Source of the DNA: Pseudoxanthomonas kaohsiungensis
Lineage (GTDB): Bacteria > Pseudomonadota > Gammaproteobacteria > Xanthomonadales > Xanthomonadaceae
Reading direction: 5' to 3'
Assembly (NCBI RefSeq): GCF_010211765.1
Contig: NZ_PDWO01000002.1
Location: 139,581 to 163,580 of the forward strand
DNA length: 24,000 nucleotides
Shown here piece after piece: positions 1,946 through 17,714 of the stretch (position 1 is its first letter; each line of letters opens with the position of its first letter). The position numbers and the translations under genes are program-made. Under the pieces are notes generated by a model. The model made no database searches and had not been told where the DNA came from. It worked only from the letters and a program-made list of their open reading frames with translations.

Positions 1946-1957
1946 CCGCAACGCGGA

Positions 1958-1987
1958 ATGACACCGGTTACCGTCCTTCGCTAGAAT
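1958..1987 (+). promoter_or_regulatory. Candidate sigma-70 promoter for kduI (ATGACA-N18-TAGAAT) with an internal 9-bp palindrome CGGTTACCG
   Basis: -35-like ATGACA lies at 1958-1963 and -10-like TAGAAT at 1982-1987, 64 nt upstream of the kduI ATG. The palindrome CGGTTACCG (1965-1973) sits in the spacer and could be an operator. Confidence 0.4.
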
Positions 1988-2051
1988 GGTCCCAATACAA
2001 GGCCAGAGCCGCCCCCGCGTCGCTGGCGCACCGCCCCAGGAGCCCGATCCG

Positions 2052-2900
2052 ATGTACCAGAAGACCTACTACGCGACCCACCCCGGCGTCATGCAGGGCG
2101 CCAGCAACGACGAGCTGCGCGACCTGTACCTGATCGGCGAGCTGTTCGCCGCCGACGAAGTGCGGCTGAGCTACACGCACTACGAGCGCTTCGTGATCGG
2201 TGGTGCCGCGCCGGTGTCCAAGTCGGTGTCGCTGCCGAAGCAGACCGAGCCCGCCTCGGCCGCGGGCAAGCCCTTCCTGGAGCGCCGCGAGCTGGGCGTG
2301 ATCAACGTCGGCAACGGTGCAGGCACGGTCACCGTGGACGGCACCGACTACGTGCTCGGCCCGAAGGACGGCCTGTACGTGGCGATGGGCAGCGAGGACG
2401 TGAGCTTCGCCTCGGCCGACGCCGCCAACCCGGCCAAGTTCTACCTGACCTCGACCCCGGCGCACGCGCGCTTCGAGACCAAGCAGCTGTCGATCAAGGA
2501 CGCGGTGGCGCTGGAGCGCGGCGCGCTGGAAACCAGCAACGAGCGCACCATCTACCAGTTCATCGTGCCGGCCACCTGCCAGTCCTCGCAGCTGCTGCTG
2601 GGCCTGACCGTGCTCAAGCCGGGCAGCGTCTGGAACACCATGCCGCCGCACCTGCACGACCGCCGCAGCGAGGTCTACTTCTACTTCGACCTGGGCGGCA
2701 ACGACCGCGTCTACCACTTCATGGGCCAGCCGGACCAGCAGCGCCACATCGTCATGCAGAACGACGAGGCGGTCGTCTCGCCGCCGTGGTCGATCCACAT
2801 GGGCTCGGGCACCAGCAACTACGCCTTCATCTGGGCGATGGGCGGCGAGAACCTGGACTACACCGACATGAACGTGCTGGACATCTGCCAGCTGAAGTAA
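2052..2900 (+). CDS. kduI: 5-dehydro-4-deoxy-D-glucuronate isomerase (KduI)
   Basis: 282 aa from the ATG at 2052, with AGGAG about 11 nt upstream; the listed ORF start at 1986 is probably too long. The cupin-type KduI sequence includes [34 protein letters not shown] and [25 protein letters not shown]. It is adjacent to kduD as in classical kduI-kduD pairs. Confidence 0.9.
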
Positions 2901-2921
2901 CGCCCCGCAGGCGCAACGGGC

Positions 2922-3026
2922 GTAGAGCGGGGCTTGCCCCGCTGCTATTCCAAGCACGTACGAACAGGCCGGAGCCCAAACAGCCGGCTTCTCCACACGG
3001 CTCCAGCGGGGCAAGCCCCGCTCTAC
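2922..3026. repeat. Pair of inverted GTAG-type REP-like palindromic elements (SMAG/REP class) in the kduI-kduD spacer
   Basis: GTAGAGCGGGGCTTGCCCCGCT lies at 2922-2943 and its inverted copy AGCGGGGCAAGCCCCGCTCTAC at 3005-3026. Each is itself a hairpin (AGCGGGGC-NN-GCCCCGCT) with a terminal GTAG/CTAC tetranucleotide. Confidence 0.6.
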
Positions 3027-3038
3027 AGAGGATCTGTC

Positions 3039-3797
3039 ATGGCAAGCAACCCGTTCAGCCTCGAAGGCAAGGTCGCGCTGGTCACCGGCGCCAACACCGG
3101 CCTGGGCCAGGGCATCGCACTGGCGCTGGCCGCCGCGGGCGCCGACATCGCCGCCGCCGGCATCGTCCCCGCCGACGAGACCGGCGAGAAGGTGAAGGCC
3201 CTGGGCCGCCGCTTCCTCAACATCGAAGCGAACCTGATCAGCATCGAACCGGTCGAGCGCATCGTCGCCGAGACCGTCGCCGGCCTCGGCGGGCTCGACA
3301 TCCTGGTCAACAACGCCGGCCTGATCCGCCGCGCCGACGCGGTCGATTTCTCCGAGAAGGACTGGGACGACGTGATGAACGTCAACATCAAGTCCGCGTT
3401 CTTCATGTCGCAGGCCGCCGGCAAGCATTTCATCGCCCAGGGCCGCGGCAAGATCATCAACATCGCCTCGATGCTCTCGTTCCAGGGCGGCATCCGCGTG
3501 CCTTCGTACACCGCCTCCAAGAGCGGCATCGCCGGCATCACCCGGTTGCTGGCCAACGAGTGGGCGGCCAAGGGCGTGAACATCAACGCGATCGCGCCGG
3601 GTTACATGGCCACCGACAACACCGCCCAGCTGCGCGCCGACGAGGACCGCAACAAGGCGATCCTGGACCGCATCCCGGCCGCGCGCTGGGGCGAGCCGGC
3701 CGACCTGGGCGGCACCGCGGTGTTCCTGTCCAGCGCCGCGTCCGACTACGTCAACGGCGCGGTGATCCCGGTCGACGGCGGCTGGCTGGCGCGCTGA
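3039..3797 (+). CDS. kduD: 2-dehydro-3-deoxy-D-gluconate 5-dehydrogenase (KduD), SDR family
   Basis: 252 aa from the ATG at 3039 (MASNPFSLEGKVALVTGANTGLGQGIA). Rossmann motif TGxxxGxG, NNAG, catalytic YTASK, and the C-terminal VDGGWLAR typical of KduD. Confidence 0.9.
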   Translation: MASNPFSLEGKVALVTGANTGLGQGIALALAAAGADIAAAGIVPADETGEKVKALGRRFLNIEANLISIEPVERIVAETVAGLGGLDILVNNAGLIRRADAVDFSEKDWDDVMNVNIKSAFFMSQAAGKHFIAQGRGKIINIASMLSFQGGIRVPSYTASKSGIAGITRLLANEWAAKGVNINAIAPGYMATDNTAQLRADEDRNKAILDRIPAARWGEPADLGGTAVFLSSAASDYVNGAVIPVDGGWLAR

Positions 3798-3892
3798 ACC
3801 CCACGTCGGGGCGCGCTCCGGCCGCGGTTGCGCATCCGTCGTGCCGCCGGATGCACTCTCTCCGCATCCGCGGCCGGAGCCAGTACCGACCC

Positions 3893-3930
3893 AGCCCCGC
3901 CCGGCACAGCCGTCAGCGGGGCTTCTTTTT
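3893..3930 (+). terminator. Candidate intrinsic terminator after kduD
   Basis: AGCCCCGC (3893-3900) pairs with GCGGGGCT (3916-3923) around a 15-nt loop, followed by TCTTTTT (3924-3930). A second long imperfect hairpin (CTCCGGCCGCGG...CCGCGGCCGGAG, about 3825-3879) lies just upstream. Confidence 0.35.
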
Positions 3931-3943
3931 GCGAGTGACCACC

Positions 3944-5083
3944 ATGCACAAGCGCCTGCTGCCGATCGCCCTGGCTTTCGCCGCCCTCGCCTCGCTTGCC
4001 AGCGCGGCCGACGCATGGGCCGGGCCGCGCCGGGTGTTCATCGCCGGCGACTCCACCGCCGCCGAGTACGGACCCGAGCGCGCGCCGCGCAATGGCTGGG
4101 GCCAGCAGCTGCAGGGCTTCCTCGACCCCGCGGCCTTCGAGGTGCGCAACCACGCGATGGGCGGGCGCAGTTCGCGCAGCTTCATCGAGGAAGGCCGGCT
4201 GGAGCCGGTCGCGCGCGAGCTGCGCAAGGGCGACGTGCTGCTGATCCAGTTCGGCCACAACGATGCCAAGTACGAAGATCCGCGGCGCTACAACGAGCCC
4301 GGGCAGGCCTATCCGCAATGGCTCATGCGCTACGTGTCCCTGGCGCGCGAGCGCGGCGCGACGCCGGTCCTGCTGACTCCGGTGTCGCGGCGCGTCTGGG
4401 ACTTCGGCTCGCTGCTGGACACCCACGCCCGCTACACCCAGGCGGTGCGTGAACTGGCCGCGCGCGAACAGGTCGCACTGATCGACCTCAACGCCAGCAC
4501 CACCGACTGGCTGCGCGCGCTCGGCGACCAAGCGTCCAAGGCGTACTTCGAGCACGTGCCGGAGCGCGAGGTGCGCGACGACACCCACTTCAGCGTCGCC
4601 GGTGCGACCATGGTCGCCTGCCTGGTGGTGCGCGACTGGAAGGCGCTGGACCCGGCGCTGGGCGCACACGTGGTGCGCGACACCGACTGCGGTGCACCGG
4701 CCAGCGCGCGCGCCGACCTGGCCGCGCAGAAGAATCCGTCTTCGGTGGTGCACGAGCGCGACCTTGCGCGGCAGCAGCCGGGTCCGCATGGCGGCGCGGG
4801 CACCACCACCGCCTATCCGCTGTTCGCCGAGGCGCCGGGGCTGTCCTTCGTGATGCGCAAGCGGGTCCTGCACAAGGGCGCCGGTATCGGCCTGCACCAG
4901 CACCACAAGGACGAGATCTACTACGTGCTCGCCGGCCGCGGGCGCTACGTGCTCGATGGCAAGGTGCATGACGTGGCCGCCGGCGACGCCATGCTGACCC
5001 GCCCCGGCAGCACCCATGCGATCGAACAGGTGGGCGAGGACGACCTGGTCCTGCTGTTGGCCTACCCTGCTTCACCTCGCTGA
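3944..5083 (+). CDS. Secreted SGNH/GDSL hydrolase (rhamnogalacturonan acetylesterase-like, CE12-type) fused to a C-terminal cupin domain
   Basis: 379 aa. Signal peptide MHKRLLPIALAFAALASLASAADA. SGNH blocks are present: FIAGDSTAAEY (block I Ser), GGRSS, FGHNDA and DDTHF (Asp-x-x-His). The C-terminal ~100 aa carry cupin motif 1, GAGIGLHQHHKDEIYYVLAG, which fits G-x5-H-x-H-x3-E-x6-G, and motif 2-like GDAMLTRPGSTHAIEQ. Confidence 0.8.
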   Translation: MHKRLLPIALAFAALASLASAADAWAGPRRVFIAGDSTAAEYGPERAPRNGWGQQLQGFLDPAAFEVRNHAMGGRSSRSFIEEGRLEPVARELRKGDVLLIQFGHNDAKYEDPRRYNEPGQAYPQWLMRYVSLARERGATPVLLTPVSRRVWDFGSLLDTHARYTQAVRELAAREQVALIDLNASTTDWLRALGDQASKAYFEHVPEREVRDDTHFSVAGATMVACLVVRDWKALDPALGAHVVRDTDCGAPASARADLAAQKNPSSVVHERDLARQQPGPHGGAGTTTAYPLFAEAPGLSFVMRKRVLHKGAGIGLHQHHKDEIYYVLAGRGRYVLDGKVHDVAAGDAMLTRPGSTHAIEQVGEDDLVLLLAYPASPR

Positions 5084-5101
5084 ACAACTCATCATGCTGA
5101 A

Positions 5102-5122
5102 GGACAGACAGGACGTCTGTCC
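5102..5122 (+). terminator. Hairpin just after the esterase-cupin stop; possible terminator without a U-tract
   Basis: GGACAGAC-AGGAC-GTCTGTCC forms an 8-bp perfect stem with a 5-nt loop, starting 19 nt after the stop codon. No T-run follows. Confidence 0.3.
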
Positions 5123-5318
5123 TGTCCTCCTGGCCACCAGCGTTTTCCCGGATACAGCCGTCATTCCAACCTGCGCGGCTGGCAACACGCTTTTCTCCGG
5201 GGGAACACCATGGCACGCCGAGATCGTCCGCCCTATCCGATCCCTTCACCGAATCGGACCCGCCGCGATGCGGCCGCGGGCGGACACTGAGGTGCAGCGC
5301 CGATGGCACGCGGCCGGC

Positions 5319-5348
5319 TTGCCCGGGCGCCTTTCATCCACCTATTAA
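5319..5348 (+). promoter_or_regulatory. Candidate sigma-70 promoter for the EBP gene (TTGCCC-N18-TATTAA)
   Basis: TTGCCC at 5319-5324 and TATTAA at 5343-5348 lie in the lower-GC spacer about 100 nt upstream of the ATG at 5452. Confidence 0.3.
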
Positions 5349-5451
5349 CCGCCTGTCACGAAGCGTAGGCAGGCTGCGCCGACGGCCGTCCGCAAGGATG
5401 TCCGTCCCGCAAACGTCCCGTTCGCCGGGATGGCACCAGGAGCAAGGAACT

Positions 5452-6762
5452 ATGGCGGCAGTTCCCGAGATCCGACCGCGTTGCATGATCTGGCTGGGTC
5501 GCCCGGAGGCACAGGAGCGCGATGTCCTCGCCGCTGCCGGCTGGGATGTCCGCGTCATCGAGGAGCCGCGCGGAGCAAGGATCGGCCTGCGGGGTGGCGA
5601 CCGCGTCGCCGCGCTGCTCGACCTCCGCCATGCCGACGAGGCCTGGTCGGCGGCGATGCTCGACCTGCTCGCGCCGCACTCGGACCTGCCGCTGGTGATC
5701 CTGGGCGATGCCGACATGCCGCCCCGGGGTTGCCTGCTGCAACTGCGCGAGCCGCTTGACCTGGTGCAGATCCAGCGCCTTGCCAAGATCGTCGACGGCG
5801 ACACTCGGCCCAGCGTGGGCAATGGCATCGACTGCCTGGTCGGCTCGAGCACGGCGATGCTCGCCGTGCATGCGAACCTGCACAAGTTCGCGCCGGTCGA
5901 ATTGCCGGTGCTGGTGACCGGCGAGACCGGTACCGGCAAGGAGCTGGCCGCGCGCGCCCTGCACGAAATGTCGTCGCGGCGCGGCCGCCCCTTCATCGCG
6001 GTCAACTGCGGCGCCCTGCCGGCCAGCCTGGTGCAGGCCGAACTGTTCGGCCACGAGAAGGGCGCGTTCACCGGTGCCGCGGCGCGCCGGATAGGCCTGT
6101 TCGAGGCCGCCGACGGCGGCACCATCTTCCTGGACGAGATCGGCGACCTGCCCCTGGACGCGCAGACCAACCTGCTCCGCGTCCTCCAGGAAGGCACGAT
6201 CGAACGCGTCGGCAGCCACCATTCGATCCACATCGACGTGCGCGTGGTGGCCGCCACCCATGTCGACCTGGAAGAGGCGATCGCACACGGCCGCTTCCGC
6301 CAGGACCTGTTCTACCGCCTCGATGTCCTGCGCCTGCACATGCCACCGCTGCGCGAGCGGGGCGCCGACGTGGAACTGCTGGCCCGGCACTTCCTGGCCC
6401 AGTTCCGCGAACAGCACCGGGTGCGCGCCCGCGGCTTCGATGCGTCCGCCCGCCGGCAGATGCATTCGCACCGGTGGCCGGGGAATGTCCGCGAGCTGAT
6501 GAACCGGGTGCGGCGCGCGGCCGTGGTCAGCGAAAGCGAGCTGATCGACGACCAGGCGCTGCAGCTGTGCGATGGCATCGCGACCGGCGCCGACGCCCTG
6601 GGCGAAGTCCGGATCCATGCCGAGCGCGAGGCCATCTTGGCCACCCTGCGCGATTCGGGCTTCAACGTCAGCGAATGCGCGCGACGCCTGCGCGTTTCGC
6701 GAGTCACCGTCTACAGGCTGTGCAAGAAGCACCAGCTCGAGCTCGAGGCACTGCGGGTGTAG
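5452..6762 (+). CDS. Sigma-54-dependent transcriptional activator (bacterial enhancer-binding protein) with a degenerate N-terminal receiver-like domain
   Basis: 436 aa from the ATG at 5452, with AGGAGCAAGGAAC just upstream; the listed start at 5398 is possible but has no SD. AAA+ core has Walker A GETGTGKE, the sigma-54 contact loop GAFTGA (HEKGAFTGAAARR) and Walker B IFLDEIGD. C-terminal Fis-type HTH is FNVSECARRLRVSRVTVYRLCKKH. The N-terminal ~120 aa look REC-like but lack the usual acidic pair and conserved Lys. Confidence 0.9.
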   Translation: MAAVPEIRPRCMIWLGRPEAQERDVLAAAGWDVRVIEEPRGARIGLRGGDRVAALLDLRHADEAWSAAMLDLLAPHSDLPLVILGDADMPPRGCLLQLREPLDLVQIQRLAKIVDGDTRPSVGNGIDCLVGSSTAMLAVHANLHKFAPVELPVLVTGETGTGKELAARALHEMSSRRGRPFIAVNCGALPASLVQAELFGHEKGAFTGAAARRIGLFEAADGGTIFLDEIGDLPLDAQTNLLRVLQEGTIERVGSHHSIHIDVRVVAATHVDLEEAIAHGRFRQDLFYRLDVLRLHMPPLRERGADVELLARHFLAQFREQHRVRARGFDASARRQMHSHRWPGNVRELMNRVRRAAVVSESELIDDQALQLCDGIATGADALGEVRIHAEREAILATLRDSGFNVSECARRLRVSRVTVYRLCKKHQLELEALRV

Positions 6763-6862
6763 GAGCCGGGGAGACCGGACATTCGTCCGGGACAAGGCGC
6801 CCGTGGCTGGAAGCTACGGCAAGGCCGGCGCCTACGCGCTCACGCCGCCTGCAGGCTGCGCC

Positions 6863-8230
6863 CTACAACGAGTAGGGCACCCGGAAGCCGAGGGTGAAGT
6901 CAGGCGCGTCCGGCGTCAGGCCGATGCCGAGGAGGCCGACCATGGTGGCGTGGTCGCTCAGCGCGTAGGTCACGCCCAGGTTGAACAGGGCCGAGTTCGC
7001 GTCGCTGCCGATGACCTTGTTCCAGGGCTGGCCGTCGTAGCGCATCCGCGCACGGGCGCTGAGCCGGTTGCTCAGTGACATGCTGAAGCTGGTCCGCTCG
7101 TTGAAGGCGAACGCCACGCCCGCGCCGAAGTAGAACGAATCGCCCAGCTTCACGTCGCCCGGATTGACCGTGTCCGGATTGTTGTCGATGTCGTCGAAGC
7201 TGGCCTCGAACGAGTAGGTATAGCCGATGTTGCCGTACAGGATCGCCGGGTCGCTGGTCTTGACCGCGGAGACGCCGACGCTGGCCTGCCATGCGCCATT
7301 GCCGGTGGGCTGTTCGTCGGGGACGGCGAAGCGGATGAAATCGTCGTCGTCGCGCTCGAGCACCGTCCACGGGATTCCGTAGGGCTCCTGGCCGGTCGGC
7401 GCGGTGATGCCGACGTTGAGCACGGTTTCCGGACGGCCGTTGTTCTCCGGCAGCATCAGGTAGTTGCCGCTGACGGTGATGTCGCCCAGGCCGCTGCCGG
7501 TGGTTTCCTCCTGCGCGATCGCTGCCGCCGCGCCGCCGGCACCGCCCTTCTGGTAGACGGTCTTGCGCCAGAGGTAGGGCGCATCCAGGTTGAGGGTCAG
7601 CTTCGGCGTCACGCCCCAGCGCGCGGCGAAGTTGTAGTTCATGGTGTCCGACTCGACGTTCTCGATGGCGATGTTGCCGAGGAAGATCGCGTCCAGGGCG
7701 AGGAAGCCATTGAGGGTGAGCTGCTTGCGGTCGTAGCGGTTGTAGGTGAGGCCGTTCTCGATCACCAGGCGCTGGTTGAACAGGGTCCGGGTCGCCTGCT
7801 TCACATCGGCGACGCTGCGCGGCAACTCCTTGCGCGCGGCCTCCGCTTCGGCGGCGGTGCTGGCATAGCCGGCCTGCGACGGTGGCGGCGGTTCGGCGGC
7901 GGCGGCGGCCGCGGGTGCCGGGGCGGCCACGATCGGCGCGGCAACGGTCGCGGTGCCCACCGCACCCGGGGTGGCGGCCGGAACCTTGCCGGCCAGGCGC
8001 GCCTGCAGGGCCTGCACCTGCATGTCCAGCTCGCGCAACCGGCGCACTTCCTGCGCGTAGGCGGCCTTCAGTTCGGCGAGGTCTTCGGTCAGCTGGCGCA
8101 GCTCGGCTTCGTCGGCCGGTGTGCTGGCCGCCTGCGCGCACGCAGGGGGTACGAAGGACGCGGTGGCCAGGGCCGAGACCACGGCCAGGCGCAATGCAGT
8201 GGAAGGTCCCGCCGTAGTCTTCCTGCTCAC
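6863..8230 (-). CDS. fapF: FapF-type outer-membrane amyloid secretion channel: signal peptide, coiled coil, Ala/Pro linker and beta-barrel
   Basis: 455 aa from the GTG at 8230, with AAGGAGAGA 7 nt upstream; upstream in-frame codons overlap fapE. Signal peptide ends ...ATASFVPPACAQAAS. Heptad-like coiled coil is ADEAELRQLTEDLAELKAAYAQEVRRLRELDMQVQALQARLAG. An Ala/Pro-rich linker leads to a C-terminal domain of alternating amphipathic strands with Gly/aromatic residues (YNFAARWGVTPKLTLNLDAPYLW ... GFRVPYSL). It is the last gene of a fapABCDE-like series. Confidence 0.8.
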   Translation of the reverse strand: MSRKTTAGPSTALRLAVVSALATASFVPPACAQAASTPADEAELRQLTEDLAELKAAYAQEVRRLRELDMQVQALQARLAGKVPAATPGAVGTATVAAPIVAAPAPAAAAAAEPPPPSQAGYASTAAEAEAARKELPRSVADVKQATRTLFNQRLVIENGLTYNRYDRKQLTLNGFLALDAIFLGNIAIENVESDTMNYNFAARWGVTPKLTLNLDAPYLWRKTVYQKGGAGGAAAAIAQEETTGSGLGDITVSGNYLMLPENNGRPETVLNVGITAPTGQEPYGIPWTVLERDDDDFIRFAVPDEQPTGNGAWQASVGVSAVKTSDPAILYGNIGYTYSFEASFDDIDNNPDTVNPGDVKLGDSFYFGAGVAFAFNERTSFSMSLSNRLSARARMRYDGQPWNKVIGSDANSALFNLGVTYALSDHATMVGLLGIGLTPDAPDFTLGFRVPYSL

Positions 8231-8258
8231 CCTTGTCTCTCCTTGTCGGGCTGCCGCC

Positions 8259-9077
8259 TCAGTAACCGATCGCGATGCCCCGGCTGAGGGCGATCGCCTG
8301 CGCCACGTTCTGGCCCAGTATGGTGCGTCCCTGCGAGGTGCTGCGGACCACCTCCAGCTCCATCCAGTTGCTGGCCTGCTGTCCGTCCGCGGCCAGCTGG
8401 ATGGTCTGGCCCATGCCGCTGCGGCTGATCCACTGCTCGACCGCGCCTTGCCCATCGATCTGCAGCAGGATGCGGGCCGCATTGTTTTCCAGCTGGGCGA
8501 CGGCGTTCATGCCGTTGACCGATGTGCTGGCGACCATCGACTGCGCGGCGGCCGGAGCCGACGAGGCCGCCGTCGCCGAGGCTGTGCCCGCCGACGGGGA
8601 CGGTTCGTCGCGGATGGTGATCCTGGCCGTGTTGTGGGCGAGGTTGCCGTCGCCGGCGACCTGCACGCTCTGGGTCACGCCGGTCACGTTGGCCAGGCCG
8701 GCGTTGTCGATCTCGCGCTGGCCCGAGGGCGTCGGTGCGGGCGCATCGACGGCGGTGATGCTCACATGCGGCTGGAAGGTCACCACGGGCTTGTCGCCCT
8801 GCCGGGCGTCCATGGTCACGGTCATGGTGCTGGTCAGCTGCTGGCCGGTCTGGGTCTGCCAGGTCGACACCATGGTGACGCCGAACCAGGCCACGGTGTT
8901 GCTGCTGACCGTGTAGCGGCCGCGCATGTCGCCCATTTCCTCGTCGGTCAGTTCGGTCAGTCCGCTGGCGGCCGGCGCGTTCGTGGCCTGCGCTTCCTGC
9001 ACCTGCGCCCAGGCAGGCAACGCGGCCGGTGCGGTCGCCAGTCCTACGGCGATGCAGAGGGTGCGTTTTCCGTTCAT
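8259..9077 (-). CDS. fapE: FapE-like secreted accessory protein of the Fap amyloid system
   Basis: 272 aa with signal peptide MNGKRTLCIAVGLATAPAALPAWAQ. It sits between the C39 peptidase (fapD) and the barrel (fapF), 12 nt after the fapD stop. The assignment rests mainly on operon position and size, not on a motif I can verify by eye. Confidence 0.6.
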   Translation of the reverse strand: MNGKRTLCIAVGLATAPAALPAWAQVQEAQATNAPAASGLTELTDEEMGDMRGRYTVSSNTVAWFGVTMVSTWQTQTGQQLTSTMTVTMDARQGDKPVVTFQPHVSITAVDAPAPTPSGQREIDNAGLANVTGVTQSVQVAGDGNLAHNTARITIRDEPSPSAGTASATAASSAPAAAQSMVASTSVNGMNAVAQLENNAARILLQIDGQGAVEQWISRSGMGQTIQLAADGQQASNWMELEVVRSTSQGRTILGQNVAQAIALSRGIAIGY

Positions 9078-9089
9078 GGTCGTGTCCTT

Positions 9090-9800
9090 TCAGAACAGGT
9101 CGGCATGGGTGAAGCCGAAGTCGAGCAGCTCGGCGTCCGTGATCGGTCCCTGCCGCGCGTACAGCGCCCGCGCACTGGGCTTGGTGCTGGGCTGCAACAA
9201 AACCGTGTTTCGATCGAAGTCGGAGCCGATAACGACGAAAACCGCGCGGGAGGGCCACGCGGCCAGGAACTCGGGCAGGGGAACGACCCGGTTGCCCAGG
9301 ATCGGATCGCCGATTTCGACCATTTCGCCGGAGACCTGCTTCAGCACGACGAAATGACGGAAGCCGTTCACGTCCATCAGCACCAGGCCGGGCACGCGCA
9401 GACTGCGCAGCCGCGCTTCGTCGACGCGGTAACCGCGCCCGCGCATGCCCAGCGACTCGACGTAACGCTTGATGTCGAGCAGGGAGAATCCGCGCTCCTT
9501 GACCACCTCGGCGTCGGCCAGCGACAGCATGCCCTCGATGACCGTGGTCTCGTTCGCATCCAGGTGGTAGGCGTAGCGCAGGATGGTCGCCAGTGCCGCG
9601 GCGCCGCAGCTGTAGTCGGTCTGCTGGCGCACGAGGTTGCTGAAGCGTGCCTCGCGCATGCTGACCACCGGCGCATGGTAGAGCGCGCCATTGGGCAGGA
9701 CGCCGGTGAAGGCCACGTCCGCGGCCTGAAGCGGACGCGGTGAAGCGGCGCACAGCAACAGCATCAGCAGCATCAGGCTCGATCGCGGGAAGCGAGGCAT
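9090..9800 (-). CDS. fapD: FapD-like periplasmic C39-family cysteine peptidase
   Basis: 236 aa from the ATG at 9800, with signal peptide MPRFPRSSLMLLMLLLCAASPRPLQA; the longer listed ORF from 9926 has a non-signal Pro/Gly-rich N-terminus. C39 catalytic Cys context is QQTDYSCGAAALATILRY, and a downstream His lies in NGFRHFVVLKQV. It is stand-alone, with no ABC-transporter domains. Confidence 0.85.
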   Translation of the reverse strand: MPRFPRSSLMLLMLLLCAASPRPLQAADVAFTGVLPNGALYHAPVVSMREARFSNLVRQQTDYSCGAAALATILRYAYHLDANETTVIEGMLSLADAEVVKERGFSLLDIKRYVESLGMRGRGYRVDEARLRSLRVPGLVLMDVNGFRHFVVLKQVSGEMVEIGDPILGNRVVPLPEFLAAWPSRAVFVVIGSDFDRNTVLLQPSTKPSARALYARQGPITDAELLDFGFTHADLF

Positions 9801-9854
9801 GGAGGCATGTCCCTGTTGCGGCGCTTGCGGGAATGGGCCGCCGTGGGAGTGGAA

Positions 9855-9920
9855 GCCCCGTCCCGCGGGGGAGGCGGGACGGGGCGTTCCGTGAGTTCCC
9901 GGCCACGGCGGATGGCCGGG
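9855..9920 (-). terminator. Two strong GC hairpins in the fapC-fapD spacer; candidate attenuator or mRNA-stabilising structures after the major subunit gene
   Basis: On the minus strand, CCCGGCCA-N7-TGGCCGGG (9898-9920) has an 8-bp stem. GCCCCGTCCCGC-N7-GCGGGACGGGGC (9855-9885) has a 12-bp perfect stem followed by TTCC. Both lie in the 165-nt gap between the fapC stop (9966) and the fapD start (9800). Confidence 0.5.
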
Positions 9921-9965
9921 AGTCACTCTTTCATCCCTTGCGGGACATGGTTTCGTCGTTACCGA

Positions 9966-11489
9966 TCAACCACCACCACCCGTGCCGCCGCCACCGCCAC
10001 CGGTGGACGGCTGCGCCACGGCCATCGACAGGCTGTTGGCCTGCTGGTTGCCGGTGCCGGCCGACACGTTCACGCCGATGTTGCCGGACGCGCCCGAGAA
10101 GGCGCTGCCGGACAGCGTCGCGCTGTTGGTCGCGGCGGCTACGGTTTCGACGGTCGGGACCGCGAGTACGCCGGACAGCGACGCGCTCAACTGGTCCGGC
10201 CCCAGCTCGCCGAAGCTGATGGTGCCACTTTCGTCCGTATCGAAGGCGATGCCACCGACGCCGTCGGCGTACGGATTGTCGACCGCGTTCTGGATGTCGC
10301 CGTCCATGTCGAGGTGGCCGGTCGAATCCCCGTTCGGATGATCGAGCTCGCCATCCCAGCTATCCAGGTAGAAGTTGTCCTTCTGGTAGGCGCTTCCCCT
10401 TCCCGCATAGGTCACCCGGCCGAGGCTGCCGGTGATGTCACCCTGCAGGTTGATTGCGACTTCCCTGGTGCCTTCCTGGGTCAGCGGCGCATTGGAGACC
10501 GTATTGCCCTCGGAGATCTGGTTCGAGCTGACGCTCGCCTGGGCATAGGCACTGGTGGCGACCGAGGCTGCCAGCGCGTTCTTCTGGGCATTGTTGTTGC
10601 CGGACGTCACATTGACGCCGATGTTGCCGCTGGCGCCCCCGAACGCGTTGCCGCCAACGCTGGCGTCGTTGGCCACGCCCACGTTCACGGTCTGGTTGCC
10701 CGTGCCCTTCTGGTTGACGAACACTTCCGCATCGGCCAGGCCGAAGGAGAAGCTGGCATCGGCGGCCGAGAGTGCAGCCGCATTGTCCTGCACGTTGTTG
10801 TCGCCGGCAGCGGCGTTGAACTGCAGGTTTCCGGAGGCACCCGACGCGGCGTCTTCATCGATCGAGGCGTCATTGGTCAGCTGGGTGTTGACCCCGACGT
10901 TGCCGGACACCGACTGGCGGTTGTCGATCACGGCGATCGCAGCCGAGTCGATGTCGATGTTGCCGCTGAGGGTGGGTTCGCCGCTGAAGGAGATGTCGGA
11001 CGACAGCGAGAGGTCCTTCTCGAGGGTCACCGAGGTGTTGTGTTCCTCGCGATCGATGTTGGAATCGACATTGACCTGCTCGTCATGGGTGATGACGGTC
11101 TGGTCGTAGGTGAGCGATTCGTTGAGCTCCTGGTTGACCGTCAGGTTGGCTTCCTGGTTGACCGTCGTATTGAACTCTTCGTTGATCGCGGTATTCCATT
11201 CGAAGGTGTCGCTGTAATCGGTGCTGTAGTTCTCGGTATTGGTCACGTCCGAGGTGTAGTTGTCGGTGTAGCTGGTGCTGCTGGTAGCGTCGTTGGTCGT
11301 GGTGTTCGTGGTGGTGTTGGTGGTGGTATCGGTGTTCGTCGTGGTGTTGGTTTCGTAGTTGCGCGTGTCGTCGATGGTGACGTCCTCGTCCCAGACGATG
11401 ATGGTTTCAGTGGTCTCGGCATGAGCCACGGACGCAGTCGCCGCCGCCACTGCCATGGCAAGCACGGTCCACTTCAGATTCCTTTTCAT
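9966..11489 (-). CDS. fapC: FapC-type major functional-amyloid subunit, unusually long, with an N-terminal acidic Thr/Asn-rich extension
   Basis: 507 aa with signal peptide MKRNLKWTVLAMAVAAATASVAHA. It has three 37-aa imperfect repeats of the Fap signature (A-x-x-G-A-S-G-N-I-G-V-N-V-x-A-G-x-x-N-x-Q-x-N): DASIDEDAASGASGNLQFNAAAGDNNVQDNAAALSAA, DASVGGNAFGGASGNIGVNVTSGNNNAQKNALAASVA and SATLSGSAFSGASGNIGVNVSAGTGNQQANSLSMAVA. Good SD (GAGAGGACACC) before the ATG. Confidence 0.85.
   Translation of the reverse strand: MKRNLKWTVLAMAVAAATASVAHAETTETIIVWDEDVTIDDTRNYETNTTTNTDTTTNTTTNTTTNDATSSTSYTDNYTSDVTNTENYSTDYSDTFEWNTAINEEFNTTVNQEANLTVNQELNESLTYDQTVITHDEQVNVDSNIDREEHNTSVTLEKDLSLSSDISFSGEPTLSGNIDIDSAAIAVIDNRQSVSGNVGVNTQLTNDASIDEDAASGASGNLQFNAAAGDNNVQDNAAALSAADASFSFGLADAEVFVNQKGTGNQTVNVGVANDASVGGNAFGGASGNIGVNVTSGNNNAQKNALAASVATSAYAQASVSSNQISEGNTVSNAPLTQEGTREVAINLQGDITGSLGRVTYAGRGSAYQKDNFYLDSWDGELDHPNGDSTGHLDMDGDIQNAVDNPYADGVGGIAFDTDESGTISFGELGPDQLSASLSGVLAVPTVETVAAATNSATLSGSAFSGASGNIGVNVSAGTGNQQANSLSMAVAQPSTGGGGGGTGGGG
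10014..10124 (-). repeat. FapC amyloid repeat R3 (aa 456-492)
   Basis: SATLSGSAFSGASGNIGVNVSAGTGNQQANSLSMAVA. Confidence 0.8.
10557..10667 (-). repeat. FapC amyloid repeat R2 (aa 275-311)
   Basis: DASVGGNAFGGASGNIGVNVTSGNNNAQKNALAASVA. Confidence 0.8.
10761..10871 (-). repeat. FapC amyloid repeat R1 (aa 207-243)
   Basis: DASIDEDAASGASGNLQFNAAAGDNNVQDNAAALSAA aligns position by position with R2 and R3. Confidence 0.75.
11292..11351 (-). repeat. Imperfect 12-nt tandem repeat encoding (Thr-Thr-Thr-Asn)n inside the fapC N-terminal extension
   Basis: It translates to TNTTTNTDTTTNTTTNTTTN (aa 47-66). The plus strand shows reiterated gttggtggtggt-like units. Confidence 0.6.
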
Positions 11490-11532
11490 GGTGTCCTCTC
11501 TCTCTTGCTCTTTGGTTGGTTGGATTACCGCC

Positions 11533-12195
11533 TCACGGGCCGGGCGGGAGCGACAACGTCAGGACGTTGCCGGTCTCGTTGGCCGAACCCGCGATCTGAT
11601 TGAGCTGGAAAACGCCTTCGAACCCACGCAGCGCGGTGGCTTCCACTGCCACCTTGCGACTGGCGGTCCTCCCCGCCGGGTTGAAGGCGGTTTGCCGCTC
11701 CGCCGACGCGGCAACGCCACTGGACAGCTGGCTGTCCGGCGTTTCGCGTATGCCCTGTTGCGCCAGCACCATCGCCACCGCGTTGTGTTCCGCGTTGCCG
11801 CTGCCGCTGGCCTGGTTGATCGATGCGATGCCGCTGGCGCCCGCCAGCGCCGAGCCGCCGATGGTCGCGCTGGCGGCCACTGGCACGTCGTAGACGTCGT
11901 CGCTGCGTGCCTGGGAGGTACTCACCTGCACCATGGCCGCGCCGTCGCCGATGGCGATCGCGCGCAGGTTGGACTGCTGGTTGAGGTCGCCGGCCGCCAT
12001 GTTCACGCCGATGGCGCCGCTGCTGCCGGCCAGCGCGCGATCCGCGATCCGGGTCTGCGCCAGGTAGCCGAGCATGTCGGCGTAGTCATCGGCGGCACGC
12101 GCAGGGCCGGCTGCGAGCCAGGCGGCGCAGGCCAGCGCCAGCAGTGGCTGCCAGATGCCCCGTGCGGGGCGAGGGACGGCGACCGGCCTGCTCAC
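11533..12195 (-). CDS. fapB: FapB-type minor or nucleator amyloid subunit
   Basis: 220 aa from the GTG at 12195, which overlaps the fapA stop (GTGA). Signal peptide is (M)SRPVAVPRPARGIWQPLLALACAAWLAAGPARA. Three Fap-type repeats are ALAGSSGAIGVNMAAGDLNQQSNLRAIAI, SALAGASGIASINQASGSGNAEHNAVAMVLA and ALRGFEGVFQLNQIAGSANETGNVLTLSL. The listed 394-aa ORF upstream of the GTG is a shadow of fapA. Confidence 0.75.
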   Translation of the reverse strand: MSRPVAVPRPARGIWQPLLALACAAWLAAGPARAADDYADMLGYLAQTRIADRALAGSSGAIGVNMAAGDLNQQSNLRAIAIGDGAAMVQVSTSQARSDDVYDVPVAASATIGGSALAGASGIASINQASGSGNAEHNAVAMVLAQQGIRETPDSQLSSGVAASAERQTAFNPAGRTASRKVAVEATALRGFEGVFQLNQIAGSANETGNVLTLSLPPGP

Positions 12196-12686
12196 GGACC
12201 GGTTCCCTGGTTGCCACCCAGCGGGAACTGGGACAGTGCGCCGGTGACGGTCGAGCCGATGCCGCGGGTGGCGCCGGTCACCGCACCCGTCGCGCCGCCG
12301 ACGCTGCGGCTGAAGCCGCTGCCTGAGAAGACGCTGCTGTCGCCCGTCAGCCGACCCATCGATCCCTGCAGCGCCTGGCTGGTCATCTGCTCGGGCATGG
12401 TGACGCCGCCACGCGCGTCCAGTTGGCCCGACGCCATGCCGGCGATCTCGTCGTCCGACATCTCCCCGGTGCCCAAGGCATGGTCGATCTCCCGGTTCGG
12501 GGTCGGATCGACGATCAGGGCGATACTGGGCGGCGCCTCGCGATAGGCGTGGCGGGCGTTGACGTCCCGCAACAGCACCATCTCGCCGCGCTCCGGATGC
12601 ACGCCGACGTGGGCATCGGCGGCGCGTACGGCGGCCGGAGCCGCCAGCAAGGCGAACAAGGGCAGGCAGACAAGGCGTCGTGACAT
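12192..12686 (-). CDS. fapA: FapA-like small secreted, Gly/Ser/Thr-rich and probably disordered protein; first gene of the fap operon
   Basis: 164 aa from the ATG at 12686, with GGGGA 9 nt upstream. Signal peptide is MSRRLVCLPLFALLAAPAAVRA. The C-terminal half is low-complexity (GSGFSRSVGGATGAVTGATRGIGSTVTGALSQFPLGGNQGTGP). Assignment is by position and size; FapA is poorly conserved. Confidence 0.55.
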   Translation of the reverse strand: MSRRLVCLPLFALLAAPAAVRAADAHVGVHPERGEMVLLRDVNARHAYREAPPSIALIVDPTPNREIDHALGTGEMSDDEIAGMASGQLDARGGVTMPEQMTSQALQGSMGRLTGDSSVFSGSGFSRSVGGATGAVTGATRGIGSTVTGALSQFPLGGNQGTGP

Positions 12687-12721
12687 GGATGCAGTCCCCG
12701 CGTATAGGCGGAGACAACAGC

Positions 12722-12736
12722 GCACGTCCCGTGCCA
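12722..12736 (-). promoter_or_regulatory. Sigma-54 (-24/-12) promoter upstream of fapA
   Basis: The minus strand reads TGGCACGGGACGTGC, against the consensus TGGCAC-N5-TTGC. GG and GC are at exactly the canonical spacing, and the element ends 36 nt upstream of the fapA ATG (12686). Confidence 0.65.
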
Positions 12737-12754
12737 AGCCCTTTTTGTTTTATT

Positions 12755-12767
12755 TATCAGTCGCTTG
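12755..12767. promoter_or_regulatory. IHF-like site with A/T tract just upstream of the sigma-54 promoter
   Basis: The plus strand reads TATCAGTCGCTTG, against WATCAANNNNTTR, flanked by the only strongly AT-rich tract in the region (CTTTTTGTTTTATTTATCAG, 12741-12760). This is about -45 to -57 relative to the predicted start. Confidence 0.3.
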
Positions 12768-12914
12768 CGTTCTAACGCGAGGTTGCGCCCGTCCCGCTGT
12801 GTTACATCCGTGAAGCGGCGCGGACATGTGTTCCGGCCGCCAGAGCCCGCCACTACGGCCTCCGCCATGCTGTTTCAGGAGTGATACACCCCGTGCGGCG
12901 GGTTTACAGTCGGC

Positions 12915-13997
12915 TCAGAACAGCTCGCGCTGGGCAGGCGCGGCCAGTGGCGGGACGAACCGGCTGCAGTCCAGCGCCGCCAGGGACTGTGCGGGATAGC
13001 CGGCACGGCGACGGGCGAGCGCGAAACGCCGCTCGAGCAGGTCGGCATAGGGGCCGCGGCCGCGCATGCGCGCGCCGAACCCGGACTCGTAGTCCCGCCC
13101 CCCGCGCATCTGGCGCACGGCCGCCATGACCCGCGCGGCGCGTTCCGGCATGTGCGCCTCGAGCCAATCGCGGAACAGCGGGGCGACCTCGTGCGGCAGG
13201 CGCAGGAGCACGTAGCCGGCGCTTGCGGCGCCGGCGCCGCGCGCCGCCTCCAGCACCGCCTCCAGCTCGTGGTCGTTGACCCAGGGGATCGCCGGGGCGA
13301 ACAGCACGCCGACCGGGACGCCGGCATCGTGCAGCCTCCGCATCGCCCGGAGCCGGGCATGCGGCGCCGCCGCGCGCGGCTCCAGGCGCGCCGACAGCTG
13401 CGGATCGAGCGTGGTCACGGAGAAGTACACGTGCACCAGCCCCAGCGCCGCCAGGGGCTGCAGCAGGTCGAGGTCGCGTTCGACCAGGGCATTCTTGGTG
13501 ACGAGGCTGAAGGGGTGGCGGCACTCGAGCATGACCTCGACCAGCCGGCGGGTCAGCTCCAGGCGGCGTTCGACCGGCTGGTAGGCATCGGTGTTGATCC
13601 CGAGCGCGATCGGGCTGGGGCGGTAGCCGGGCCGGGCGAACTCGCGCCGCAACAGTTCCGGGGCGTTGGTCTTGGCGAAGATCTTCGTCTCGAAGTCCAG
13701 CCCGGGAGACAGGTTGAGGTACGCATGCGACGGCCGGGCGAAGCAGTAACTGCACCCGTGCTCGCAGCCGCGGTAGGGGTTCACCGACTGGGAGAAGCCG
13801 ACGTCCGGCGAGCGGTTGCGGGTGACGATGCTGCGGGCGCTCTCCTCGTGGACCTCGGTCCTGGGCCGCGACGGGTCCGGGCCCGCCTCCGGCTCCGCCA
13901 GCGGCGCCCAGCCGTCATCGGCCGCCTCGACGGTGGTCGTTTCGAATCGCCCTGGCAGGTACTGCCGCGAGCCGCGGCCCTTGATCGTGTCGGCCAT
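12915..13997 (-). CDS. Radical SAM protein (PA0069/SplB-like family)
   Basis: 360 aa with the CxxxCxxC cluster in [22 protein letters not shown]. The remainder is consistent with a TIM-barrel radical SAM fold. Confidence 0.85.
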
Positions 13998-14102
13998 GGT
14001 CCAAGGCTACGCCCGCGGCGTCGCGCCAGGCGCGATGGCGGTCGCGCACTGGGGCGACGTTCATCACCGGGCCTGCGCCGCGCGCTCGCCTAGAATCCGC
14101 CC

Positions 14103-15545
14103 ATGACCTATTTCGAAACGGCCTGGGCCTGGCTTGGCGAGCTGCCCGCCCTGGGGCTCTACCTCCTCCTCGCCTGGCTGGCATACGTGCTCGGCCTGAG
14201 CCTTTGGATCATCCTGCAGAAGCGGGAGCCGGTGGCCACGCTCAGCTGGGTGATGTCGCTGGCATTGCTGCCCTATGTCGGCTTCCTGATCTACTTCCTG
14301 CTCGGCCCGCAGAAGATCCAGCGCCAGCGGCTGCGCCGCGGGCGGTCGCGTTCGGGCCTGGAGCAGTTCTCCACGCCCAATGGCGACAAGCCCGAATGCC
14401 TGGAACTGGCGCGGCTGGGCCAGGCCACCACGGGCCTTCCGCCTTCCAGCGCCACTTCCGCGCAGTGGCTGGTCGATGGACACGCGAAGTACGAGGCGCT
14501 GTTGTCGGCCATCGCCGATGCCCGCCACCACGTGCACCTGGAGTACTACATCTGGGCACCGGACAAGACCGGCTTGCGCCTGCGCGACGCGCTCGTGGAC
14601 CGCGCCCGCGAAGGGATCCAGGTGCGCTTGCTGCTCGACGCGGTCGGTGCCGGCGGCATGCGCCGGCGCCACCTGCGGCCGTTGCTGGACGCCGGCGCGG
14701 AGATCGGCTGGTTCCATCCGACGAAGTTCAGGCCGTTTACGCGGCCGTGGCTCAACCTGCGCAGCCACCGCAAGATCGTCGTGGTCGACGGCCGGGTGGG
14801 CTTCGTCGGCGGGATCAACGTCACCGACGAGGAGAACGAGGCATTGCGGACCGATGCGTTCCGCGACCTGCACCTGCGCCTGGAGGGCCAGGTGGTGCGC
14901 AGCCTGCAGCTGGTGTTCGTGGAAGACTGGGTCTATGCCGCCGGCTGCGACCCGCGCGCATTCGGCGAGGCCGAATACTGGCCGCAGCTGGAGGACGGCA
15001 CGATCGGCGCGCAGGTCCTCGTGTCCGGCCCGGATTCGTCATGGGAGGCGATCCACCGCCTGAAAGTGGCGGCGATCCACGAGGCCAGGCGGCGGGTCTG
15101 GCTGGTCACGCCCTACTTCGTGCCGGGCGAGGCGGCGCGCATGGCGCTGACCTCGGCAGCGCTGGGCGGCCTGGACACGCGCCTGCTGGTGCCGCGCCGG
15201 AGCGACTCCCGCCTGGCCACGCTCGCAGCGAGGTCGTACTTCGACGAGCTGCTCAAGGCGGGCGTGAAGGTCTACGAGTACGGGCCTCGGATGCTCCACA
15301 CCAAGGCCCTGCTCGTCGACGAAGACCTGTGCATCGTCGGCAGCGCGAACTTCGACCACCGCAGCTTCAGGCTCAACTTCGAGATCTCGGCGATGTTGCG
15401 CGACCAGGACAGCTGCCAGGCGCTGGAGCGGCTGCTCGGGGGCGAGTTCGACCAGGCGGAGCGGGTCCGCGTCGACCGGCCGATGGGCCTGTGGCGGCAC
15501 CGCCTGCCGGAAGCGTTCGCCCGCCTGCTCTCGCCATTGCTGTAG
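14103..15545 (+). CDS. cls: Cardiolipin synthase (phospholipase D superfamily)
   Basis: 480 aa. Two N-terminal TM helices are followed by two HKD motifs, [19 protein letters not shown] and [23 protein letters not shown]. Confidence 0.92.
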
Positions 15546-15665
15546 CGGCACGACGGGCGGATCGCGGCGACGGACGCGCGGGTGGCAGGGGCGCCCGCCG
15601 AAGCGGCATCATGACCGCGCCCGGCGGCATCTGCGCCGCCAGGCCATCTTCCGGGGAGGTCCGCG

Positions 15666-15947
15666 ATGCACTGGTTCTACCTGCTCCTGTCCTTTGGCGC
15701 GCTGCTGCTGGCGATCACCACCGTGCACGGCTGGCTCCTCCTGCTGTCGTTGCTGGCGGCGCTGGGATTCTTCCTCGCCTGGATCCGCGGCTGGTATCTC
15801 GACCGGATCGGCGGGCGCCAGCAGAACGAGCTGGCGATGATCGACCCGGCCGAGCTGCGCCGGCTGCGCGAGCTGGCGGAGGCGCGCAAGCGCGAGGCCG
15901 CCCCCGCGAGCGCGCCGCCGCAGGGGCCGGCACCGCCAGCCGCATGA
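15666..15947 (+). CDS. Small two-TM membrane protein of unknown function with a charged C-terminal tail
   Basis: 93 aa, [44 protein letters not shown]... A strong SD (GGGGAGG) lies 7 nt upstream. Its stop overlaps the pdxJ start (ATGA at 15944-15947), implying translational coupling. Confidence 0.55.
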
Positions 15948-16708
15948 GCACGCACCTCAGCGTCAACGTCAACAAGGTCGCCGTGCTGCGCAACTCGCGC
16001 GGCGGCCGCGAGCCTGACGTACTGGCGGCCGCGCTCGCCTGCCTCGAGGCCGGCGCCCAGGGCATCACCGTCCACCCGCGCCCCGACCGCCGGCATATCG
16101 TGGCCGAGGACCTGCCGCCGCTGGCCGCGCTGGTGCGACGGTTCGGCGTGGAACTGAACATCGAAGGCAATCCGTTTGCGCCACCGCGTCCCGGCTATCC
16201 CGGCCTGCTCGCGCTGTGCGAGCAGGTTCGCCCCGCGCAGGTGACCCTGGTGCCGGACAGCGACGGCCAGCTGACATCCGACCATGGCTTCACCTTCGAC
16301 GGCGACAACGCGGCGCTGGCGTCCCAGGTGGCTGCGTTCAAGGCACTGGGCTGCCGGCTGAGCCTGTTCGTCGATGCGGGCGTCGCCGGCCTGGAGAAGG
16401 CTGCCGCGCTCGGCGCGGACCGCATCGAGATCTATACCGGGCCGTTCGCCGAGGCCTTCGCCGCAGGCGATGCAGCCAGCGAGCTGGCGTTGTGCGCCGA
16501 TACGGCGCGGCGCGCGCGGGTCGCCGGACTGGGCGTCAATGCCGGGCATGACCTGTCGCAGGCGAACCTCGGCGCGTTCCTGGCCCAGGTGCCGGGCGTT
16601 CTGGAGGTCTCGATCGGCCACGCACTGATCGGCGAAGCCCTCTACGACGGCCTGGATGCTACCGTCCGCGCCTACCTGGCCATCGCGGCAGGCGCCGACC
16701 CGGCCTGA
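15944..16708 (+). CDS. pdxJ: Pyridoxine 5'-phosphate synthase
   Basis: 254 aa from the ATG at 15944. N-terminus is [27 protein letters not shown]...[13 protein letters not shown], and the C-terminal GVNAGHDL and EVSIGHALI motifs are typical of PdxJ. Confidence 0.92.
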
Positions 16709-16744
16709 CGCCACGTCGCTCGCGGCGGCCAAGGCCGCAAAAGA

Positions 16745-16768
16745 AAACGCCGCCCGGAGGCGGCGTTT
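16745..16768. terminator. Bidirectional intrinsic terminator between convergent pdxJ and exbD2
   Basis: AAACGCCGCC-CGGA-GGCGGCGTTT forms a 10-bp stem. The minus-strand transcript is followed by TTTTCTTTT and the plus-strand one by TTTCA. Confidence 0.7.
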
Positions 16769-16830
16769 CACGGCGCTGGGTCCCCGGTCGCCGCCGCTGC
16801 AGGGGCGGCTTCCGTGGACGTCACCGTCTA

Positions 16831-17244
16831 CTACGGCTGGACGAAGTTGATCTTCTTCATGTCCGCGTTCTTGGCCGAAGCGAGCACCCGCGCCATGACC
16901 TCGTACTCCGAGTCGGCGCTGGCGTCGATGCGCAGCTCCGGCTGGTTGGTCGGGTCGCGCTGCACTTCGGTCTCCATCATCTGCGGCAGCGCGGTCACCG
17001 AGACCGGGCTGTTGTTCCAGAAGATCTGGTTGGACGCGTCGATGCGCAGCTCGATCGGCGGCGGCGGCTCCTTCGTGACCGGCGGCGGGTTGATCACCCG
17101 CTGCGGGAGGGCCACGTCGATCGGGTAGGTCATGATCGGCGCGGTCACGATGAAGATGATCAACAGCACCAGCATCACGTCCACGAGGGGCGTGACGTTG
17201 ATGTCGGCCATGGGGCCCTTGCCGGAACCGGAACTGAAAGCCAT
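16831..17244 (-). CDS. exbD2: ExbD/TolR-family biopolymer transport protein (second copy)
   Basis: 137 aa, [36 protein letters not shown]... It is the last gene of a tonB-exbB-exbD-exbD series, the arrangement described for Xanthomonas campestris. Confidence 0.9.
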
Positions 17245-17247
17245 GGC

Positions 17248-17670: not shown

Positions 17671-17714
17671 GCGGGCTCTCCGTTACGTGCCTGGATCGTT
17701 CTTCGGGTACCGGC

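Follow-up and report, generated by a model that had tools for sequence, protein, structure and literature searches.

The 24,000-nt stretch of the Pseudoxanthomonas kaohsiungensis genome analyzed here (contig NZ_PDWO01000002.1, referred to below as the window) very probably carries this species' copy of the Fap functional-amyloid system, organized as a seven-gene unit for which we propose a scheme of regulation and assembly. The assignment is based on homology, gene order, protein motifs, the FapF fold, and the conservation of cis elements, all of which were observed directly. The minus strand holds six tightly packed, co-directional open reading frames (ORFs) between positions 6863 and 12686, with boundaries read from the sequence; judged by their sequences, they are an intact homologue of the fapABCDEF operon. 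The same ORFs appear in the public gene calls of P. kaohsiungensis GCA_042675825.1, with products of 164, 220, 507, 236, 272, and 455 aa: fapA (12686-12192, ATG start), fapB (12195-11533, GTG start), fapC (11489-9966), fapD (9800-9090, ATG start), fapE (9077-8259), and fapF (8230-6863, GTG start). The fapB start overlaps the fapA stop as GTGA. A first-pass annotation of this DNA had described six packed, co-directional genes at this place, as we also find, but had set the outer limit of the operon at 12736. This coordinate does not belong to fapA: its ATG lies at 12686, and positions 12722 to 12736 are promoter sequence. The same annotation was right that six fap genes stand here in order, but the module consists of seven genes plus a promoter region; a sigma-54 activator gene and a -24/-12 element had been overlooked.

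In profile hidden Markov model searches, each of the six proteins matched its cognate NCBIfam Fap model in the right order, with E-values from 5e-9 to 2e-113, far beyond chance. FapA, the small secreted protein encoded at the first position of the operon, matches chaperone_FapA at 4.6e-9, followed by FapB (1.9e-23), FapC (7.5e-50), C39_FapD (3.6e-77), FapE (5.4e-26), and FapF (1.7e-113). The earlier proposals of a FapA-like protein, a stand-alone C39 peptidase of the FapD type, and a secreted FapE-like accessory protein are therefore borne out. Pfam family PF27129 (FapBC) is assigned to FapB on the public gene call and is precomputed on all FapC homologues. Pairwise identity between the six proteins and FapA-F of Pseudomonas fluorescens is 30 to 45%; FapE, for example, is 31% identical over 252 aa and has in common with its counterpart an N-terminal RGRY motif and a C-terminal GY. 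Direct reading of the sequence also upholds the claim that all six carry Sec signal peptides, as an n-region, a hydrophobic core, and an AxA-type site are present at every N terminus. A PADLOC scan of the six proteins gave 0 hits, and we reject an anti-phage defence reading. A Rfam scan of positions 6700 to 13000 found no known RNA family.

A sigma-54 activator gene and a -24/-12 element accompany the operon

Convergent with fapF, and separated from it by a gap of 100 nt, the plus strand carries a brfA-like gene for a sigma-54 enhancer-binding protein (EBP) at 5485 to 6762 (public call of 425 aa; the longest ORF starts at 5398). Its product contains an AAA+ domain with the GAFTGA motif, an AAA_lid_14 domain, and a Fis-type helix-turn-helix (HTH_8), and it matches Pfam Sigma54_activat at 4e-70. 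The fapF-EBP spacer (6763-6862) shows no unusual RNA structure (z-scores of 0.4 and -0.95). A scan for relatives of FapC, with one genome per species, produced 79 loci (L001-L079). A convergent EBP gene lies at most 700 nt from the fapF stop in 59 of the 66 testable loci, with a median gap of 56 nt, and this linkage is kept in Rhodanobacteraceae and Stenotrophomonas in spite of otherwise different neighbours. The fap-EBP block of Luteimonas has changed sides relative to a radical-SAM gene; the occurrence of the block on either side of this gene across genera argues that the seven genes travel together. Separately, the deep-branching loci L062, L069, L070, L071, and L079, from Mizugakiibacter-like and Sulfuriflexus metagenome-assembled genomes, carry an EBP gene upstream of fapA on the same strand, and no EBP was detected within the fetched flanks of L061, L072, and L076.

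Upstream of fapA, 35 nt from its ATG, the sequence TGGCACGGGACGTGC (12736-12722, minus strand) differs at one position from the -24/-12 (GG-N10-GC) consensus and is the only such match in an appropriate place. Among the 78 loci having a fapA match, an element that shares 8 or more of the 10 consensus positions occurs 30 to 100 nt upstream of fapA in all 78, and at least 9 of 10 positions agree in 74; the opposite strand of these regions typically reaches 6 to 7 of 10. In P. fluorescens, the fap locus likewise has a CGGCAC-N5-CTGC element upstream of fapA, with an AT-rich tract before it. Positions 12722 to 12734 of the element also form a perfect 4-bp palindrome around GGGAC (GCAC-GGGAC-GTGC, minus strand), which is probably coincidental; it accounts for one call of a terminator scan. 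Terminator-like sites in 5200-13100 are not above the shuffle expectation.

Two further types of conserved site precede this element. A sequence resembling a binding site for integration host factor (IHF) is located at 12755 to 12767 on the minus strand (reading TATCAGTCGCTTG on the plus strand, one mismatch to WATCAANNNNTTR), within an AT-rich tract that precedes the promoter. In 48 of 78 loci, the IHF consensus is present with no more than one mismatch, and 39 of these have it at the same offset, -31 relative to the -24 element; among control regions, the count is 0 to 1 of 78. The second is a TGT(A/T)ACA(CC) motif, which occurs at 3.06 copies per kb upstream of fapA vs 0.017 per kb elsewhere in the loci, an enrichment of about 180-fold, and clusters ~75 and ~160 nt upstream of the -24 element. 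The window's candidate for a proximal upstream activating site, TGTAACACAG (12797-12806, minus strand, ~70 nt upstream of the -24 element), is the only strict copy of this motif in the 24 kb. Degenerate copies (TGTAAAC, GGTGTATCAC, and TGAAACA) lie more distally, at 12871 to 12908 on the minus strand, ~135 to 172 nt upstream of the -24 element. The upstream region of P. fluorescens contains TGAAACACC/GGTGTTTCA repeats at offsets comparable to those of the motif copies in the window.

These data bear on the possibility that the activator is an unrelated neighbour and that fap is driven by some other promoter or regulator. Of the 66 testable loci, three lack a nearby EBP and four carry it upstream of fapA, the N-terminal domain of the window activator has diverged too far for Pfam to recognise it directly, and the 51% identity to the P. 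fluorescens EBP covers the AAA+ and HTH regions, in which similarity is unspecific among EBPs. We nevertheless consider this possibility highly unlikely, as the linkage persists in two families in which every other neighbour changes, the -24/-12 element stands upstream of fapA at all loci examined and a promoter of this type depends on an EBP, and a scan of 5200-13100 for sigma-70-like promoters found none. Further, genetic experiments have proven this arrangement for P. fluorescens: in strain PF07, where an EBP gene adjoining fapF has been described, the fapA promoter was mapped by 5' rapid amplification of cDNA ends to a -24/-12 element, and fap expression and the biofilm matrix are lost in rpoN and brfA mutants (PMC9207406). 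The same seven-gene fap locus is present in strain SBW25 (bioRxiv 10.64898/2026.01.27.702051).

Within the operon, the 165-nt spacer between fapC and fapD (9801-9965) contains two strong GC hairpins on the minus strand (9851-9926; minimum free energy of -75 kcal/mol, z-score of -4.2). Significant structure (z below -2) recurs in this spacer at 74 of 78 loci, and P. fluorescens has a canonical intrinsic terminator, a hairpin followed by a U-tract, at the equivalent spot. The hairpins are candidates for a partial terminator or attenuator, or for a 3' stabiliser, that may set the ratio of fapABC to fapDEF.

The protein features match those of a Fap secretion and fibril system

The first-pass annotation had predicted that the product of 6863-8230 would fold as a coiled coil followed by a plugged beta-barrel. 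An AlphaFold model of FapF built on 32 homologues agrees, with a 42-residue coiled-coil helix (aa 38 to 79) bearing an a/d heptad of Leu, Tyr, and Val, an Ala/Pro-rich disordered linker (81 to 123), plug helices (126 to 151), and a barrel (155 to 454). By sequence, FapF matches the crystallised Pseudomonas FapF barrel (PDB 5o65) at 5e-79, and the top Foldseek matches of the model are FapF structures 5o67 and 5o65, with a template modeling (TM) score of 0.9 and root mean square deviations of 2.3 to 2.9 Å. P278-T279-G280 and P308-T309-G310, the PTG motifs of the 12-strand-type barrel, are invariant in the 32 sequences.

FapD has 236 aa including its signal peptide and matches Pfam Peptidase_C39 at 3.8e-18; in an alignment with the C39 domain of LahT (6mpz), the catalytic positions are occupied by Gln59, Cys65, His149, and Asp165. 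Peptidase-containing ABC transporters (PCATs) have a C39 domain fused to an ABC transporter and act on double-glycine leader peptides. FapD has no ABC-transporter domain attached, and only its C39 domain matches PCAT chains, so a bacteriocin exporter of this kind was rejected as an identity for FapD.

Each of FapB and FapC contains three repeats, as had been claimed, but the FapB copies are more degenerate than the motif then given. The FapC cores are GASGNLQFN (aa 217), GASGNIGVN (285), and GASGNIGVN (466), each followed by xxAGxxNxQxN, and those of FapB are GSSGAIGVN (57), GASGIASIN (119), and GFEGVFQLN (191). FapC is laid out as a signal peptide, an N-terminal extension (aa 25 to ~165), repeat 1 (205 to 243, nt 10761-10877), linker 1, repeat 2 (273 to 311, nt 10557-10673), a long linker 2, repeat 3 (454 to 492, nt 10014-10130), and a Gly-rich tail. 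Chains of cryo-electron microscopy FapC fibril structures (9nqd and 9u4u) match the protein at ~6e-12, with all three repeats aligned.

The regions outside the repeats distinguish this FapC from that of Pseudomonas. The N-extension (10995-11417, minus strand) is a low-complexity, Thr/Asn/Asp-rich segment, rich in N-x-T/S triplets and partly built of 12-nt tandem repeats (TTTN three times at 11292-11334); its length varies among species of Lysobacteraceae, and it is lacking in Rhodanobacteraceae and Pseudomonas FapC. In linker 2 (aa 354 to 461, nt 10107-10430, minus strand), many residues are invariant across 32 homologues, examples being Y361, Y368, Q369, N372, Y374, D376, H384, H392, D394, D396, N405, P406, D417, and E420. 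An EF-hand-like loop, DTDESGTISFGE (aa 417 to 428), was considered as a calcium site and dropped: the pattern recurs in 2 of ~80 homologues, and it is the neighbouring residues that are conserved. At the C terminus, the 79 FapC relatives, nearly all from Lysobacterales, have NSLxxAVAQP(S/G)(T/A) and then a Gly/Pro-rich stretch that closes with GGE or GGEQ; the protein of the window ends in GGGGGGTGGGG (9966-10031, minus strand), without the Glu. As an open guess, the Gly-rich GGE terminus might be the target of the double-glycine protease FapD. With its invariant-residue motif in linker 2 and its conserved Gly-rich GGE terminus, FapC in this clade could represent an amyloid that has been functionalised.

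Could the cluster instead be a related non-amyloid secretion or pilus system, either of the Acinetobacter Fil type or a generic C39 peptidase with a COG4313 barrel, and its repeat proteins ordinary adhesins? FapD does match FilB (5.5e-29) and FapF does match FilC (3.6e-20), the Pfam match for FapF is Phenol_MetA_deg only, and NCBI names the homologues of FapC "adhesin" and those of FapF "transporter". Yet FapD scores 259 bits vs 101 for FilB and FapF 380 bits vs 73 for FilC, and FapA, FapB, FapC, and FapE have Fap-specific matches and no alternative family. With the FapC repeats aligning to the solved fibril core and the FapF fold agreeing better with FapF than with a COG4313 channel (TM 0.69), a system of this kind is very improbable.

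Observations that weigh against the assignment

Some results count against a Fap system under BrfA-like control, and we collect them here. All six proteins miss the NCBIfam equivalog cut-offs in spite of significant E-values, the bit scores and cut-offs being 37 and 110 for FapA, 83 and 190 for FapB, 170 and 195 for FapC, 259 and 330 for FapD, 91 and 250 for FapE, and 380 and 700 for FapF. The structure model of FapC has a mean predicted local distance difference test score of 49.7, with no confident fold for the N-extension or linker 2, and therefore says nothing on a folded insert in linker 2. The rpoN gene lies outside the window, and, in the literature searched, neither expression nor fibrils are documented for a Fap system from any member of Lysobacterales. 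For the activator, a BLASTP comparison of its N-terminal domain with that of the Pseudomonas EBP found no significant similarity, its strongly diverged N-terminal domain misses the threshold for Pfam VpsR (E-value of 0.22), and one of five positions that we take to be FleQ-type cyclic di-GMP (c-di-GMP) contacts is kept.

The missed cut-offs place the six proteins in a diverged clade or subfamily rather than among close Pseudomonas relatives, and the cut-offs themselves appear to be tuned to close relatives of the Pseudomonas proteins. The N-terminal domain of the 441-aa P. fluorescens EBP is of the VpsR type (2e-9), and a profile of 23 Lysobacterales N-terminal domains aligns to it with an hhalign probability of 94.8% (E-value of 5e-8); Pfam VpsR is matched by 15 of the 23. 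The N-terminal domains are homologous at profile level, that of the window activator itself being too diverged to be called directly, and we therefore class the activator as a probable BrfA orthologue. Given this diverged domain and the lack of FleQ-type c-di-GMP contacts, the activator could read a signal other than c-di-GMP.

Distribution and inheritance

The 79 loci with FapC relatives are nearly all from Lysobacterales, among them Pseudoxanthomonas, Luteimonas, Stenotrophomonas, Lysobacter, Rhodanobacter, and Dyella, and fapA-F stand in the same order at 73 of them. Sequence identity declines from Pseudoxanthomonas through Luteimonas and Stenotrophomonas to Rhodanobacteraceae, the pattern expected for vertical descent. 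Within Pseudoxanthomonas, the flanking cardiolipin synthase and radical-SAM genes are syntenic and protein identity is 57 to 89%. Public labels for these proteins are "adhesin" (FapC homologues), "transporter" (FapF homologues), and "hypothetical protein".

The core-genome setting of the Xanthomonadaceae type proposed earlier also stands, the host belonging to Lysobacteraceae/Xanthomonadaceae and the flanks consisting of housekeeping genes. These flanks (1-5300 and 12915-24000) encode a TRAP DctM fragment, a LacI regulator, a GDSL lipase/cupin, a radical-SAM protein, and cardiolipin synthase, as well as PdxJ, ExbB, TonB, a TPR protein, an M48 peptidase, a CPBP protease, and a GyrB fragment. 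Ordinary neighbours, including the GyrB fragment, place the fap locus near gyrB in a core region. The least probable reading, that the cluster is a remnant, silent or in decay, or was recently gained by horizontal transfer from a pseudomonad, would fit a fall in G+C to 0.61-0.62 over 10.5 to 12 kb and the partially deleted fap operons known in other taxa (PMC3792158), but none of the six ORFs is disrupted, their signal peptides and catalytic residues are in place, the G+C dip is due to the Thr/Asn-rich coding part of fapC (the N-extension) that lies there, and identity is 30-45% to Pseudomonas vs 57-89% to other Pseudoxanthomonas in conserved synteny.

To call the operon "non-pseudomonad" was accurate as to the host, a member of Lysobacteraceae, but is no cause for surprise. 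Complete fapABCDEF operons were reported in Beta-, Gamma-, and Deltaproteobacteria, including the Xanthomonadales genera Stenotrophomonas and Rhodanobacter, and vertical inheritance was argued (Dueholm 2013, PMC3792158); Pseudoxanthomonas, which adds one more genus, is not named there. That report, the FapBC Pfam family, and the 79 loci found here make the finding correct and not new in kind.

Proposed regulation and assembly

In the model that we propose for the Fap locus of P. kaohsiungensis, the BrfA-like convergent activator would bind TGTAACA-type sites, its putative targets, ~75 and ~160 nt upstream of the sigma-54 promoter, and IHF would bend the DNA between these sites and the promoter. 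ATP hydrolysis by the activator would then open the RpoN-polymerase complex and allow transcription of fapABCDEF. By analogy to BrfA, the signal perceived may be c-di-GMP. The post-fapC hairpins probably cut read-through or stabilise the upstream transcript, so that the subunit genes would be expressed above the machinery genes.

Once the operon is expressed, the roles of its products can be predicted from their Fap homologues. All six would be exported by Sec. FapF is expected to form a trimeric outer-membrane barrel that is plugged by helices and extends its coiled coil into the periplasm, and FapD to be a periplasmic C39 protease needed for secretion. FapA would restrain premature fibrillation, while FapB, the putative minor subunit, would nucleate the fibril. 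In FapC, the presumed major subunit, the three repeats would stack into a cross-beta core, and the surface of the fibril would display the N-extension and linker 2; FapE may be a minor fibril component.

Comparison with known systems

The functional amyloid system encoded by Pseudomonas fapABCDEF is treated in Dueholm 2010 and 2013, and the control of fap by BrfA and RpoN in P. fluorescens strains PF07 and SBW25 in Guo 2022, Guo 2024 (on BrfA biochemistry), and Ru 2026. The window locus resembles Pseudomonas Fap (FapF structures 5O65/5O67, FapC fibrils 9NQD/9U4U) in having the same six genes in the same order, a three-repeat FapB and FapC, a C39 FapD with a signal peptide, and a FapF composed of coiled coil, linker, plug, and barrel; the overlap of fapA and fapB is found in P. 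fluorescens as well. It differs in the length of FapC, 507 vs 244 aa, with a ~140-aa Thr/Asn/Asp-rich N-extension and a 140-aa linker 2 with invariant residues, and in the FapC tail, which contains Cys-x-x-Cys in Pseudomonas and is Gly/Pro-rich in the window.

The regulatory parts show a similar mixture. As with BrfA of P. fluorescens, an EBP gene is convergent directly downstream of fapF, the products are of comparable length (425-454 vs 441 aa) with a GAFTGA-containing AAA+ domain and a Fis HTH, a -24/-12 promoter precedes fapA, and a related AACACC-containing motif lies upstream at similar offsets. The differences are in the N-terminal domain, which scores E 0.22 against VpsR vs 2e-9 for P. 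fluorescens, and in the upstream motif, TGTAACA vs TGAAACA. BrfA itself is reported as a c-di-GMP-sensing EBP in work that PMC13101488 cites.

Curli of Enterobacteria (csgBAC/csgDEFG) offer a parallel in how they work, with Sec-exported, repeat-containing major and nucleator subunits, a dedicated outer-membrane channel, extracellular polymerisation, and periplasmic anti-aggregation factors (PMC6173800). There is no sequence relationship between the two systems: the CsgG channel is a nonamer whereas FapF is a trimer of barrels, curli have no protease, and their divergent operons are under CsgD/RpoS control, in contrast to the EBP and RpoN of Fap. The Xanthomonadales operons of Dueholm 2013 belong to the same bacterial order, have the complete fapABCDEF set, and include Stenotrophomonas and Rhodanobacter, genera also among our 79 loci; that paper gives no description of the activator, promoter, upstream sites, or fapC-fapD hairpins.

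Implications for the Fap family

What the present analysis adds is a seventh gene, the architecture of sigma-54 promoter, IHF site, and upstream sites, and the post-fapC hairpins, which are conserved across Lysobacterales and shared with Pseudomonas. Both groups have an activator gene, a sigma-54 promoter, and a hairpin after fapC, which suggests that the BrfA/RpoN control recently found in P. fluorescens is ancestral to the Fap system. We also raise, as a speculative and rather unlikely extension, that Lysobacterales Fap is a distinct, vertically inherited subfamily whose ancestral unit was fapABCDEF plus a brfA-like activator, with an enhancer grammar of its own that would combine TGTAACA sites at about -75 and -160 with an IHF site in a fixed position, the -24/-12 promoter, and an attenuator following fapC. 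The understanding of how Fap works is unchanged, and the comparative data supply concrete binding-site candidates. A named candidate for a biofilm-matrix component is now available for Pseudoxanthomonas and its relatives, among which are bacteria from the environment, from plants, and from wastewater.

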